DNA of 51,084 nucleotides from Nitrospirae bacterium GWC2_56_14 (GTDB taxonomy: Bacteria; Nitrospirota; UBA9217), in the NCBI GenBank assembly GCA_001803705.1, contig MHDY01000230.1:502-51585 (forward strand), written 5' to 3'. Positions within the stretch are counted from its first letter, which is position 1. Each line of letters opens with the position of its first letter. The notes under the pieces were generated by a model, which worked only from the letters and a program-made list of their open reading frames with translations, was not told where the DNA came from and searched no databases. The position numbers and the translations under genes are program-made. Positions 22,306 through 24,632 of the stretch are shown in pieces.

Positions 22306-22327
22306 GGTGTCCTCCTGAATAATCTAG

Positions 22328-22568
22328 ACGTAATGTCAAAATCTAACCACAGAGAACACAGAGAATCTTTAAATCCCAAAATGGTTAAGGCTTTTTACCG
22401 GCCTTCCCCTCTGTGCCCTTCTTCGATAATAGTTTCTGAGTTACTGTATTCCTCACCACTTCAAGAATGGTCTTATTGCTGAGTCTGTTACAAGTACACA
22501 GCACTTCTCCGTGCCCACTGTGGTTTCATACTTGTCTCTCCGGTTTTCATAAAACTTTTGACACGACC
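22328..22568 (+). mobile_element. MITE-like non-coding element, copy A
   Basis: About 87% identical by hand alignment over ~240 bp to 44661-44899 in the same orientation. Flanked by AATCTAG (22321-22327) and AATTTAG (22569-22575). Imperfect terminal inverted repeat ACGTAATGTCAAAA / TTTTGACACGACC. Confidence 0.7.
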
Positions 22569-22571
22569 AAT

Positions 22572-24632
22572 TTAGAAAAGTTTCCTGGTGACGGTCAGGT
22601 AATAGTGTGCTGTTGAAGCGGTTTGATCGCCATTCGCTGTTGTGGTTACGAGCCGGTTGTCCGAAGCGCTGAACAGGAGGGTCACCTTGCCGATCCTCCA
22701 GGACAGGCTGGCGTTCAGAGCGAACGTCTCCGAATCGATGAGAGAAGTCCTTCGGGCATAGGAGGTCCCTGCAGAGAGATTCAACCGGGCGCGCTGGTAT
22801 CGTTTATTGAACAGCAGCCCTGCAGCGGCAATGTTCTCGGAATACCCCTTGCTGTCCGGCACCGCTTCCGTTGCTTCGTAGGTGTTCCGTTCGTGCTCGA
22901 CGTTTGCGGAGAGGTCGAGGGTGGGATCGAGAGGGGCCCGATAGGTTGCGGAGTTCCTCAGCGAGTGAGAAGGACTTCGCGGCGACCGGTTCCGGGAGTA
23001 CTCGCCGGCAAAGGAAAAGGGCCCTTTCAGCAGCGCGACTCCGGCTGTATCGGTAATGCTGTCGTCGGGCCCGCCCGGGAGTGCGCCGGAAAGCACCTTC
23101 TGGGTCATGAACGAACGGCTGCAGTACGGGCTGACCAGATTGTCGAGGAGATGGGCCCGGATTGCATAGGATTCGCTTGTTGTCTCGAGTTCGACGTCAG
23201 CAGGAACAACGGCGTATGAGACGAGAAACTCGTATACGGTTCCGGCCGTGAACGGCGCAGGCAGGGCGAGGATGATGATACGAACGGACGCGCCGACAAG
23301 CTGGACGAGATACTGGGTGTTCGTCAGAAGGATGAGACCGCCGGTGGCCGGGTCTTTCACCCATACGCTGATGGTCGTGACATCCACCGATTGGGCGTTC
23401 AGGGGAAAGTCGCCGGAGATGACGGCGCTGTGCGATTCCTGCAGGACCAGGGGGGCGCCGTTCCTGTCTGAGAGCGCCTCTCTCAGGTTGGCCGATGCCG
23501 TGAGCACTCCTTTTGGGACTTTTTTTGTGTAGAAGAGGGAGAGGTACCGGCTTCTGCTGTCGGTATTCCCGCTCATGGACTGAAAGAACGTGCGGTTCAT
23601 GCCAATTTCCGTTGTCAGGCTTTCGTAGAGGCGATGGGAAAGGGCCAGCCCCCTTGAGTCTGTTTTGTTCGAGGTCCCGGTCCCGGCCTGGCCGGTCATT
23701 GTCCCGTTGGTTACCGTGTTCCGCTGGAGGTTGTAGGATGCCGTGGTCCGGAAGCGCCAGGGCAGGTCCGACTGCAGCTGCTCGGACCAGGAGAATCCTT
23801 CCGTTCCCATTGGGGGAGCGGAGGACGAGTTCTGGCGCTGCTTACGCCCCTCCAACCTGCTGGTGAGGAAGAGGGGTTCAAGGGCGAGCTGGTTGCCGAA
23901 AAGAGAGGTGTCCTGCACGATCCGACTGCCCAGGGAATCGACGGAGTCGGACCGGGAGTAGGATGCGGTATTCGAGGTCGGTCCGATCAGGTACGTGCCC
24001 GAGGCCCGGTAAGTTCTGGAATCCGCGGAAGAAGCGCCGGAGGTGGTGGAGCTGTCTATGGCGTCCAGGTTGAGGAACAGGGGTTTCCGCGCATACCGGA
24101 AAAGAGCGCCTTTTTCTTCGGTGATCGAATGGAGAGCGGGCCCATAGGGGTTGCTGGTGACGGGCTCGAAGCGGAGAGCGAACAGTTCAAGGTTGTAGGG
24201 ATGCTCGGGCAGGATCTTCGCCCGCAACCCATACTCCCTGAGTGAATTGACGTTCCGCGACGTGACGCCGTTGCGCTCGAAAGAGACCTGCTCAAGGCCG
24301 CCTGAGAAGTCCGAGCTCAGGAGGATGAACCGCGGGTGATAGATGTAGCCAATGGCGGAAAGATGCAGTTTTTCGCGCATCGTTGTCTCCCGGGAACTCG
24401 AGCTTTTTCCCTCGTACATCGTCCTGTTGTCAATTCGCGTCATGCCGACCTCCAGATCGCCGCTGTAATCCAGAAGTCTCGGCGCAAATTGGCCCGTCTC
24501 GCCGGAGGAAAGGGACGGAACCAGCAAACAAACTGCCAGGAAAACGGCAGCCAGGACGGCAAGCGAGCGTATGTTCGCTCCGGTTTTTATCACCGTTTCT
24601 ATCCGATGACCCTGTTCCTCTGCATCGTTCAT
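22572..24632 (-). CDS. Putative outer-membrane beta-barrel protein (porin component candidate)
   Basis: Signal peptide (LAVLAAVFLAVCLLVPSLSSG). The sequence is S/T/G/Y/R/N-rich with alternating-hydrophobicity segments. The C-terminus reads ...AHYYLTVTRKLF with a terminal Phe. The ATG overlaps the upstream cytochrome stop (ATGA). Confidence 0.6.
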   Translation of the reverse strand: MNDAEEQGHRIETVIKTGANIRSLAVLAAVFLAVCLLVPSLSSGETGQFAPRLLDYSGDLEVGMTRIDNRTMYEGKSSSSRETTMREKLHLSAIGYIYHPRFILLSSDFSGGLEQVSFERNGVTSRNVNSLREYGLRAKILPEHPYNLELFALRFEPVTSNPYGPALHSITEEKGALFRYARKPLFLNLDAIDSSTTSGASSADSRTYRASGTYLIGPTSNTASYSRSDSVDSLGSRIVQDTSLFGNQLALEPLFLTSRLEGRKQRQNSSSAPPMGTEGFSWSEQLQSDLPWRFRTTASYNLQRNTVTNGTMTGQAGTGTSNKTDSRGLALSHRLYESLTTEIGMNRTFFQSMSGNTDSRSRYLSLFYTKKVPKGVLTASANLREALSDRNGAPLVLQESHSAVISGDFPLNAQSVDVTTISVWVKDPATGGLILLTNTQYLVQLVGASVRIIILALPAPFTAGTVYEFLVSYAVVPADVELETTSESYAIRAHLLDNLVSPYCSRSFMTQKVLSGALPGGPDDSITDTAGVALLKGPFSFAGEYSRNRSPRSPSHSLRNSATYRAPLDPTLDLSANVEHERNTYEATEAVPDSKGYSENIAAAGLLFNKRYQRARLNLSAGTSYARRTSLIDSETFALNASLSWRIGKVTLLFSASDNRLVTTTANGDQTASTAHYYLTVTRKLF

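Follow-up and report, generated by a model that had tools for sequence, protein, structure and literature searches.

Among described systems, mobile insertion cassettes (MICs) such as MIC231 of Bacillus cereus, which is mobilised in trans by IS231A, are small elements moved by an enzyme encoded elsewhere. In the IS6/IS26 family an 8-bp target-site duplication is a hallmark (PMC7986276, PMC6807381). The long Clostridial group of this family forms clades VII/VIII of Harmer & Hall 2019 (PMC6807381) and clades h/i of Varani et al. 2021 (PMC7986276), with ISTps1, ISCbo1, ISTet2 and ISHahy6 among its members. In these papers, tips of the long group are described as about 18 nt in length, with GG, G7, cTGTt and caaa motifs, no G10 and non-complementary outermost bases, and two MITEs are recorded for the family as a whole (PMC6807381, PMC7986276). 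[quoted passage not shown] 2008), according to PMC10969869 and PMC3184786, is 178-235 bp long, A+T-rich relative to its genome and stably folding, occurs in dozens of full and partial copies and was inserted inside an operon without breaking it; PMC3184786 gives 21-bp inverted repeats and 9-bp direct repeats. Members of IS110/IS1111 have DEDD enzymes, lack terminal inverted repeats and target duplications, and read their target by pairing of an element-encoded RNA (PMC11187229).

The repeat analysed here occurs as two gene-less copies, A and B, in the window, a stretch of 51,084 nucleotides from the metagenome-assembled genome (MAG) of Nitrospirae bacterium GWC2_56_14. Our analysis shows that both are non-autonomous, internally deleted copies (MITEs) of a transposable cassette of about 550 bp; as a whole, the observations are very probably best explained by MITEs of such a cassette inserting with an 8-bp duplication at a Shine-Dalgarno (SD)-anchored site in a specific orientation. 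Like MICs, the element has IS-type inverted-repeat ends, target duplications, a passenger gene and no transposase, and gene-less MITEs coexist with it; unlike MICs, it resembles another IS family, its passenger is a nuclease tied to internal hairpin arms, and its target choice is strict. Compared by description only, it is akin to Chunjie in size, A+T-richness, stable folding, spread of copies and operon insertion, whereas its tips of 13-18 bp and duplication of 8 bp differ from the 21 and 9 bp of that MITE. A small enzyme gene framed by hairpin-forming repeats is also the arrangement of REP/REPIN sequences with their RAYT genes and of ORF-bearing 23S rRNA intervening sequences. The core of CACAGAG arms and GxxExxY nuclease fits this layout, including, as for REPINs, many gene-less copies dispersed through the genome. 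However, REPINs make no target duplications and depend on a Y1 HUH enzyme, while here the tips are IS-like, the target is duplicated over 8 bp and the site of insertion is SD-anchored. With IS110/IS1111 elements and their seeker/bridge RNA the element shares a target choice that is highly specific and fixed in orientation, but none of their DEDD enzyme, repeat-less ends or RNA-guided targeting was seen in it.

Two gene-less copies in the window

A preliminary description of the window had proposed a MITE-like element in two copies that align over their full length in the same orientation, and this alignment was reproduced with about 31 differences. The repeats are real, but the starts given for them, 22328 and 44661, had to be corrected to the limits in Table 1. 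Flanking direct repeats are likewise present, at a length of 8 bp and not 7 bp; the 7-mers reported earlier are substrings of the 8-mers, and their length was misread because the first base of the element is the C of CGTAATG and not an A. The ends (CGTAATGTCAAAA ... TTTTGACACGACC) do form an imperfect inverted repeat, as described. Neither copy holds a conserved ORF, and the 92-aa ORF of copy B is missing from other copies. The gene contexts also agreed with the earlier account. Copy A lies between a porin-like barrel gene, whose TAA stop falls inside the distal duplication (22569-22576), and a SurA-type PPIase gene, whose start codon is at 22303-22305 and whose SD sequence is separated from the duplication by 4 nt and from the tip of the element by 12 nt. 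This copy sits within a multihaem cytochrome operon. Copy B is located between a PAS histidine kinase gene and a response-regulator/HD gene, and an extra tandem CCCTCTGA 8-mer at 44646-44653 holds the TGA stop of the kinase gene.

Table 1. Positions of copies A and B and of their parts in the window.
Feature	Positions	Strand	Sequence or remark
Host Shine-Dalgarno AGGAGG of PPIase gene	22311..22316	-	CCTCCT on plus strand
Proximal 8-bp target-site duplication, copy A	22321..22328		AATCTAGA, gene strand TCTAGATT; one substitution relative to ancestral TCTAAATT
Copy A, 240 bp, gene-less	22329..22568	-	Aligns with the two end modules of the gene-carrying elements (546/553 bp); the lost nuclease gene, like the downstream PPIase gene, has its sense on the minus strand
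Proximal tip, copy A	22329..22341		CGTAATGTCAAAA
Proximal arm, copy A	22345..22365		AACCACAGAGAACACAGAGAA, CACAGAG 9-mers in tandem
Distal arm, copy A	22504..22525		CTTCTCCGTGCCCACTGTGGTT, inverted partner of proximal arm
Remnant of the ribosome-binding site and ATG that belonged to the nuclease gene	22527..22541	-	GGAGAGAcaagtATG on minus strand
Distal tip, copy A	22551..22568		GGTCGTGTCAAAAGTTTT reading inward; family consensus GGTAATGTCAAAAGTTTT
Distal 8-bp target-site duplication, copy A	22569..22576		AATTTAGA, gene strand TCTAAATT
Proximal 8-bp duplication, copy B	44654..44661		CCCTCTGA
Copy B, 238 bp, gene-less	44662..44899	-	87% identical to copy A
Distal 8-bp duplication, copy B	44900..44907		CCCTCTGC, 7/8 match

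Compared with the empty sites of close relatives (L162-L166), copy A has inserted cleanly into a spacer of 18 nt. The empty site of L162 has the sequence CTTTTCTAAATTATTCAGGAGGACACCATG; in the window the 240-bp element stands between CTTTTCTAAATT and TCTAGATTATTCAGGAGGACACCATG, and the 8-mer TCTAAATT can be read directly in the empty site of the relatives. Copy B is an insertion relative to the empty sites L288-L291, again of close relatives. In these sites the SD sequence and the genes are intact. A segmental duplication is ruled out by the unrelated flanks and the empty sites, and the copies are not confined to the two in the window: the MAG (75% complete) contains four full-length copies of 87-90% identity, one diverged full-length copy and about ten tip-only or partial copies. 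One-ended matches in relatives (L006, L020, L032) were considered as IS ends and turned out to be truncated copies. Terminal inverted repeats, recurrent target-site duplications, lack of coding capacity, multiple copies and empty sites for both A and B thus bear out the earlier MITE reading.

The gene-carrying cassette and its parts

Longer elements (546-553 bp), which have the ends of copies A and B and are flanked by perfect 8-bp duplications, contain as their sole gene a GxxExxY PD-(D/E)XK nuclease (TIGR04256). No recognisable transposase, which the preliminary description had proposed to look for, is carried by this longer parent. The TIGR04256 protein was detected with E 4.5e-44 in L230 (546 bp, 8/8 duplication) and with E 2.9e-39 in L209 (553 bp), and copies A and B align with these two elements at each of the end modules. 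Fragments of the nuclease gene are kept in about a dozen copies; no other gene was ever found between the tips. A TIGR04256/PF13366 protein lies between the arms in L126 and L071 as well as in L230 and L209. In the structure model (pLDDT 88.7) the 116-residue nuclease is a PD-(D/E)XK core of one domain whose N-terminus is disordered, and it matches Cas4 and lambda-exonuclease-type PD-(D/E)XK folds only and no RNase-H/DDE fold; a PDB sequence search returned no match. Of the catalytic D...E-x-K residues, D82 is nearly invariant in the alignment and E92 and K94 are invariant.

Read in gene orientation, the cassette starts with the distal tip (GGTAATGTCAAAAGTTTT), followed by its own SD and ATG, an arm of CACAGAG 9-mers whose translation is MKPQRPQR, the nuclease gene, the inverted arm and the proximal tip TTTTGACAxTACN. 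The tips CGTAATGTCAAAA / GGTxGTGTCAAAAG are kept across genera and metagenomes. Family-wide, the first base of the proximal tip is variable while G2 and G7 are conserved, and the profile of the distal tip is G95 G78 T71 A95 A52 T95 G92 T95 C90 A97 A97 A95 A97 G76 T92 T97 T85 T76. Internally, inverted arrays of CACAGAG-type 9-mers frame the unit, and these arms recur in at least 120 loci from many phyla. In gene-carrying relatives the distal arm codes for the first nuclease residues (MKPQR..). The gene-sense strand folds better in 16 of 20 copies. Wobble asymmetry, counted from related copies, is 77 vs 29. This asymmetry could reflect the coding constraint on the distal arm or a mutation bias; the arms may fold as a hairpin in the host transcript, wobble pairs being tolerated on the gene-sense strand. 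Searches of Rfam gave no match at E <= 1 for four copies and none overlapping the hairpins in 16 loci. Cassettes with arms but without tips (L126, L071, L300) show no fixed SD spacing, nor any flanking duplication in those read; this suggests that the tip layer is a separate mobilisation system. Among the viral contigs scanned, the distal module had one match (L167, a decayed copy) and neither the SD-tip junction nor the distal tip had any, and blastn against plasmids gave no match.

Target duplications and target choice

A target-site duplication with at least 7/8 matches was present in 31 of 59 complete copies (11/20 from genomes, 20/39 from metagenomes), 14 of them perfect, whereas other offsets and shuffles gave about 2 matches on average. 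Recurrence of the duplication, raised earlier as a point to check, was thereby confirmed, and its sequence varies across independent copies at a constant length of 8 bp. Scores were bimodal, 24 copies having 6-8 matches and 16 having 0-4, with none at 5; the SD anchor was found in both classes. The flanks of L019 and L030 are swapped, and the element encoding an identical protein (P0265) lacks the duplication in four of six contexts. The roughly 40% of copies without duplication may have arisen by replicative or cointegrate-type movement or by recombination between copies. Loss of the duplication and exchanged flanks are consistent with replicative movement; homologous recombination explains both equally well.

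The target was surveyed in 115 independent metagenomic flanks and 47 genome-derived copies. The distance from the proximal tip to CCTCCT (AGGAGG on the gene strand) was 12 nt in 64 of 89 scorable cases (72%), while the distance from tip to ATG was spread over 22-25 nt. At flank positions -18 to -13 (n = 115) the counts were C80 C95 T78 C101 C98 T71, and CTCC ended 13 nt from the tip in 63 of the 115. A CAT start codon was present in 74 of 77 flanks with a spacing of 11-14 nt, mostly 5-8 nt beyond. The same SD spacing was obtained in the 47 genome-derived copies. The 3' flank gave no signal, and the 8 + 4 nt adjoining the tip show no sequence constraint. In about 30% of copies there is no good SD at the canonical distance. 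The protein P0265 is encoded at no fewer than six different loci, and wherever the contig reached the downstream host gene an 8 + 4 + AGGAGG junction was seen, in one case offset by 1 nt. Elements are in nuclease-sense orientation relative to the downstream gene, with copy B as an exception, and the downstream host genes are unrelated to each other. These data show that the anchor is an SD-like DNA motif and neither the start codon nor gene function.

Copy A is a canonical case of this rule. Copy B departs from it, lying at an SD-like AGGGGA motif on the antisense strand in the last codons of the kinase gene, where there is no gene start. The earlier view of a DNA-level mobile element stands, but its argument from an orientation opposite to local transcription is misleading, as the family is very strongly biased in orientation and position relative to the downstream SD.

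Insertion duplicates 8 bp of target and leaves the proximal tip 12 nt upstream of AGGAGG (8-bp duplication plus 4-nt spacer). With this distance and a single orientation, the cassette therefore lands in a transcribed leader or intercistronic spacer and spares the host ribosome-binding site, its promoter-less nuclease gene being placed in the sense of host transcription. Consequently, elements can sit between co-transcribed genes without destroying them.

Mobilisation and alternative explanations

Several features of the element recall IS6/IS26: the 8-bp duplication, G7 in both tips together with GG in one and G2 in the other, a TGT...CAAA motif, a consensus about 18 nt long, a lack of complementarity between the outermost bases, and an outward-facing -35-like hexamer in the tip. 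Many copies also lack the duplication or have exchanged flanks, as cointegrate or replicative movement predicts. The tips fit the verbal description of the long group, whereas a match to the short-group 14-bp consensus needs a 2-nt gap: 10 of 12 aligned positions agree with GGTTCTGTTGCAAA after this gap, and the TG of GGTTCTGTTGCAAA is missing. The element differs from IS6/IS26 in that no PF13610 transposase was found with these tips and the only enclosed gene encodes a PD-(D/E)XK nuclease; the passages searched in PMC6807381 and PMC7986276 make no mention of an SD-anchored, orientation-specific target choice for the family. Strand transfer may be supplied in trans by a DDE transposase of the IS6/IS26-like long kind. 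We give about an even chance to the proposal that such an enzyme moves the gene-carrying form as a passenger cassette and the window copies as its MITEs. On this model, an IS6-like (PF13610-type) transposase with GGTAATGTCAAAAG tips at its two ends should exist.

Neither the MAG (75% complete) nor about 290 loci yielded a transposase of any kind, whether enclosed by such tips or close to them; the loci were retrieved by patterns requiring a CACAGAG arm, so that an arm-less autonomous IS would be missed, and insertion sequences in general assemble poorly. Since no transposase was found, the mobilising enzyme is one that we infer only. Tip pairs spaced 0.45-4.5 kb in the MAG do not enclose any transposase, and long repeats of high identity are absent from it; one candidate for an autonomous IS (C27) proved to be a chance match. 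A phmmer search with Tnp26 (100% identical to annotated IS26 tnpA; PF13610 at E 2.4e-48) gave nothing among all ORFs of the MAG and of all loci, the long group being remote from Tnp26, and tblastn of the same query against phages returned short IS6 members only.

The cassette itself might alternatively be autonomous, with the GxxExxY nuclease driving movement and host repair or ligation completing the insertion. The nuclease could read GGAGG and, in the manner of Type IIS enzymes, make a cut staggered by 8 nt at a constant distance from it, or it could cut a cruciform of the arms. An asymmetric recognition site with fixed-offset cleavage would explain both orientation and spacing, and it fits this idea that no second gene has been seen between the tips, that the nuclease gene is always oriented for expression by host transcription, that its catalytic residues are conserved and that in many phyla CACAGAG arms go with this protein family, also where tips are absent. 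On the other hand, the 116-residue core has neither a separate recognition domain nor a known strand-transfer activity, and the tip-less arm cassettes lack fixed SD spacing. In known systems, target duplications of variable sequence together with terminal inverted repeats point to DDE (or Cas1) integration, and the element has both. We therefore regard autonomous movement by the nuclease as unlikely, and give the same low weight to the idea that it is the element's own mobility or maintenance enzyme, reading the SD motif or the CACAGAG cruciform and cutting at a fixed offset.

Position and orientation near SD sequences could also arise by random insertion and later selection for harmless copies; an intergenic survivorship bias is general for IS and MITEs, and compact operons offer few harmless sites, such as the 18-nt spacer at copy A. 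Selection cannot, however, produce a single-nucleotide peak at 12 nt against a broad spread of tip-to-ATG distances, with the 8 + 4 nt beside the tip unconstrained. The rule already holds for young copies, which encode an identical protein, and copy B lies at an antisense motif where no gene starts, which makes selection after random insertion very improbable. Finally, the fixed position before start codons in one orientation, the better folding and wobble asymmetry of the gene-sense strand and the outward-facing TTGACA of the tip would suit a non-mobile, conserved cis-regulatory leader RNA or promoter module of the downstream genes. Against this stand the empty sites in close relatives with SD and genes intact, the variable 8-bp duplications, the unrelated downstream genes, the negative Rfam searches and the fact that no sigma-70-type promoter was found on the gene strand. 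A hybrid promoter formed from TTGACA was also rejected, as a spacing of 17 nt leads to the SD itself instead of a -10 box. The empty sites refute a leader RNA as the primary explanation, to which we attach next to no probability; the host may nonetheless make secondary use of the hairpin.

SD-anchored insertion in the sense orientation would give the MITEs and their parent cassette a safe, always-transcribed harbour inside operons, and hundreds of unrelated genes are predicted to be affected in the structure, processing and translation of their mRNA. For annotation, it matters that such repeats mimic conserved 'leaders'. Neither the SD-anchored target choice nor the link between CACAGAG repeats and GxxExxY proteins was found described in the searchable literature. 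The analysis connects the very large GxxExxY (PF13366) family of unknown function and the widespread CACAGAG hairpin repeats to a mobile unit that can be tested, whose ends and target are defined and for which empty sites exist. With experimental confirmation of the target rule, the system would represent natural motif-anchored, orientation-controlled insertion by a small element and a possible tool. Should the nuclease-driven reading be true, the cassette would be a new class of autonomous mobile element homing to ribosome-binding sites, and a function would be assigned to a protein family with many thousands of uncharacterised members.

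Empty sites and target-site duplications

Loci orthologous to that of copy A were found through the PPIase protein (94, 87, 86 and 68% identity); homologues of this flanking protein carry the names Nitrospirota or Thermodesulfovibrionales, the likely lineage. In the orthologous loci, 18-40 nt lie between the end of the porin-like gene and the PPIase start. The empty site of one relative (L162) reads CTTTTCTAAATTATTCAGGAGGACACCATG, and the window on the gene strand reads CTTTTCTAAATT / GGTCGTGTCAAAAG...TTTTGACATTACG / TCTAGATTATTCAGGAGGACACCATG, slashes marking the element boundaries. 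Since L162 is empty where the window is filled, copy A is a precise insertion of 240 bp, and TCTAAATT was duplicated in the process; one of the two 8-mers has changed by one base since. At the site of copy B, the relatives L288-L291 have CCCTTCCCC(G/A)CTGA followed directly by the spacer, and this copy is likewise an insertion. Here the window has CCCTCTGA-element-CCCTCTGC, with one extra tandem CCCTCTGA on the left. This 8-mer is single in the relatives, and the extra unit may stem from slippage, or may be the footprint left by an element that once inserted here and was excised.

Copies A and B, which align over their full length in the same orientation as the preliminary description had stated, are 87% identical. 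The source MAG (3.16 Mb, 259 contigs, 74.6% complete, 56% G+C) contains two further full-length copies, 87-90% identical, on contigs C254 and C204, a diverged full-length copy on C35 in which conservation is limited to the ends, and about 10 partial or tip-only copies. The four near-identical copies have a G+C content of 41-44%, the diverged one 47%. With the element read as CGTAATGTCAAAA...TTTTGACAC(T/G)ACC, 8-bp direct repeats flank each of the five full-length copies: CCCTCTGA/CCCTCTGC at copy B, and ATCAACTG/ATCAACTG, GCTGAGAA/ACTGAGAA, AATCTAGA/AATTTAGA and ATTAAGTG/ATTAAGAG at the others. The flanking repeats noted previously are thus present, their length being 8 bp and not 7. Empty sites, which the preliminary description had proposed to look for in relatives, exist for both window copies; together with the 8-bp duplications they bear out its MITE reading. 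They rule out a segmental duplication, which it had considered in case only two copies existed; the two empty sites also exclude a fixed regulatory leader as the main explanation.

Among 20 complete genome-derived copies, the duplication matches at 7 or more of 8 positions in 11, with a mean of 4.85 matches at offset 0 versus 1.8-2.2 at offsets of ±1-3. Among 39 complete metagenomic copies it is perfect in 14 and reaches at least 7/8 in 20. The scores are bimodal: 24 copies have 6-8 matches, 16 have 0-4 and none has 5. In the relative genome G006, the 8-bp flanks of two copies (L019 and L030) are reciprocally swapped, TTTGTTCA...AACTACGA and AAACTACG...TTTTGTTC, which indicates a rearrangement via recombination or replicative transposition between copies. 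Bimodal scores and swapped flanks are patterns that would be expected of replicative or cointegrate movement or of inter-copy recombination, known for IS26.

The element matched 15 of 61 genomes searched, namely the MAG itself and 14 of 36 others of the same taxonomic family, spanning 10 genera; the portions conserved among them are the termini. It had no match in any of the 24 searched genomes of other families in the phylum.

Target choice at Shine-Dalgarno motifs

In nearly every copy the CGTAATG (proximal) tip adjoins CCTCC...CAT, the reverse complement of a Shine-Dalgarno (SD) motif and start codon, the gene reading away from the element. Positions -17 to -13 of 47 distinct genome tips are C34 T30 C33 C38 T31, positions -12 to -1 are unconstrained, and the distal flank of the genome copies has no sequence signal. 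A metagenome scan with a pattern wholly inside the element returned at least 120 loci. The 115 distinct flanks among the matches listed have C80 C95 T78 C101 C98 T71 at positions -18 to -13, and in 63 of them the spacing between the end of CTCC and the tip is exactly 13 nt; CAT follows within 16 nt, mostly 5-8 nt, in 74 of the 77 listed flanks with 11-14 nt spacing. In 64 of 89 copies CCTCCT lies 12 nt from the tip, while the distance from tip to ATG spreads over 22-25 nt, tracking the natural SD-ATG spacing. Thus, insertion is anchored on the SD motif rather than on the start codon, and this anchor is equally common in copies with high and with low duplication scores. On the gene strand the order is element, 8-bp duplication, 4 nt, AGGAGG, 5-8 nt, ATG.

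The empty site already has the SD, which shows that this motif is the host's own and was not carried in by the element. The genes downstream of the MAG copies are unrelated (PqiA-like, SurA-type PPIase, SRPBCC, pterin-binding, PD40 propeller, MoaC, glutamate-synthase-like). Copy B adjoins its target-site duplication followed by TCAG-AGGGGA, on the antisense strand within the final codons of the kinase gene, a position that favours recognition of an SD-like motif in the DNA over selection for a functional gene start. A sigma-54-type motif, described earlier as a promoter near this copy, is present.

Coordinates of the element copies, neighbouring features and related loci
Feature	Sequence	Coordinates	Remarks
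Copy A	window	22329-22568	240 bp
Copy B	window	44662-44899	238 bp
Left CCCTCTGA pair at copy B	window	44646-44661	
Multihaem cytochrome / NHL-propeller / porin-like barrel gene cluster	window	18348-34731	contains copy A; gene order conserved in relatives L162-L166
Response-regulator/HD ORF, 369 aa as listed	window	45003-46112	probably too long; orthologues of 343 aa place the start near 45081
Sigma-54-type motif	window	45004-45019	TGGCAT-N5-TTGCA
Copy with swapped flanks	L019 (G006)	1307-1568	
Copy with swapped flanks	L030 (G006)	1309-1569	
Arms-only GxxExxY cassette	L300 (Nitrospirae MAG GCA_016215115.1)	1167-1700	without IS-like tips; between cas1 and cas2 of a CRISPR-Cas operon
Variant without distal tip module	L302 (GCA_030616165.1)	1170-1760	flanked by 24-nt direct repeat TTTTTTTATCAGGGTGAAAATATG (hisG leader, SD and ATG); GxxExxY ORF fused to the duplicated host start codon
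Sole detectable GxxExxY-like gene of the MAG	C215 (G000, outside the window)	4199-4468	apparently truncated; 44% identical to L230 over 90 aligned residues; bordered by CGCAGAT repeats, another variant of the heptamer
Rfam cspA thermoregulator match	L094 (Chloroflexota MAG)	14-442	82.4 bits; CACAGAG hairpin in same locus; unrelated to the element

A gene-carrying parent and its arms

In the metagenomic loci, copies that are complete from tip to tip measure 98-553 bp. Two of them, L230 (546 bp, with a perfect duplication of GTATGATA) and L209 (553 bp), contain a single ORF each on the gene-sense strand, encoding a GxxExxY protein (E 4.5e-44 and 2.9e-39). This parent ORF starts with an SD and ATG (GGAGAGG...ATGAAACCACAGAG), a relic of which the window copies conserve in their distal end. 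The arm encodes the first residues of the protein, MKPQRPQR; residues 1-16 are disordered in the AlphaFold model and the remainder is confident (pLDDT 88.7). The window copies align to about 75 bp of the distal and 110 bp of the proximal ends of L230 and L209 and are without their coding core of about 310 bp. About 12 other copies keep N-terminal, C-terminal or frameshifted gene fragments, forming a decay series.

The GxxExxY family is very large (7,568 of 8,000 scored candidates at E <= 1e-20), and the best 120 of these scored candidates have identities of 67% or more, most of them being 138 aa long. One and the same protein (P0265) occurs in six or more distinct gene contexts; its gene and the next host gene always point the same way, the latter beginning 111-118 nt past the stop of the former. 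Examples of the junctions are AAATACAA-element-AAATACAA-AAGA-AGGAGG-gtaaaa-ATG in L292 and CATGCAGG in L295, both 8/8. The proximal 8 + 4 + AGGAGG junction recurs in L294, L298 and L299, and with a one-nt offset in L296; the distal flanks of these four are unrelated.

An arm adjoins each tip, the proximal arm being AACCACAGAGAACACAGAGAA and the distal arm its inverted partner. In species-representative genomes the 21-nt arm motif was found in at least 120 stretches, where chance alone would give about 4; they come from Planctomycetota, Nitrospirota, Cyanobacteria, Acidobacteriota, Verrucomicrobiota, Bacteroidota, Chloroflexota and one Methanoperedens MAG. The stretches consist of CACAGAG 9-mers in tandem, usually with an inverted counterpart 60-150 bp off, and in L126 and L071 the arrays enclose a gene for a 125-127-aa GxxExxY protein (TIGR04256, E 1e-42 to 1e-46; PF13366). 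The sole mention found in print is a 2012 catalogue, which lists PF13366 with function unknown.

The element is a MITE, a known kind. In the searchable literature we found no description of a MITE derived from a cassette with only a GxxExxY nuclease, of IS6-like tips around a CACAGAG hairpin core, or of sharply defined, oriented insertion 12 nt upstream of SD motifs. Compared by description only, the nearest named MITE in size and habit is Chunjie of Geobacter, which differs in its reported 21-bp repeats and 9-bp duplications (PMC3184786), as against 8 bp here.

Candidate mobilising enzyme and a possible transcript hairpin

The preliminary description had proposed a search for a cognate transposase with matching ends. 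Neither in the MAG nor in about 290 loci did a DDE transposase turn up between tips, phmmer with a verified IS26 transposase gave no match in either, and the sequences analysed include no arm-less junctions. These negatives are weak evidence of absence, because patterns that contain the arm had served to collect the loci and the MAG is incomplete.

An IS6-like attribution of TGTCAAAA-ended, RBS-homing MITEs was checked against published hallmarks. As outlined in two accounts (PMC6807381, PMC7986276), IS6/IS26 elements have 8-bp duplications and the consensus GGTTCTGTTGCAAA with G1, G2 and G7; the long Clostridial IS6 group has a consensus of about 18 nt with G7, G2 at one end and G1 at the other, no G10, and outermost bases that are rarely complementary. 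The consensus is GGTAATGTCAAAAGTTTT for the distal tip, which the search pattern left free, and N-G-T-A-(T/A)-T-G-T-C-A-A-A-A for the proximal tip; these tips fit that description of the long group (PMC6807381, PMC7986276). Since the tips fit, the duplication scores are bimodal and flanks are swapped, trans-mobilisation by an IS6-like DDE enzyme is the most likely chemistry, held with middling confidence. The main rival, autonomy driven by the GxxExxY nuclease itself, seems rather improbable. The nuclease model matches only PD-(D/E)XK folds of Cas4 (SSO0001), lambda exonuclease, RecE and MGME1 type, weakly (E ~1e-3, TM ~0.5), and structure comparison gave no match to an RNase-H-like transposase fold.

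On the gene-sense strand copy A folds at -69.5 kcal/mol (z = -3.4), versus -51.8 (z = -2.0) on the other strand, and the gene-sense strand folds more stably in 16 of 20 copies. Transition mismatches in the arms are wobble-compatible in 77 cases on the gene-sense strand versus 29 on the other. Given that the copies are related to one another and that the distal arm belongs to the coding sequence of the parent, these figures suggest, rather than show, that the hairpin matters in the host transcript.
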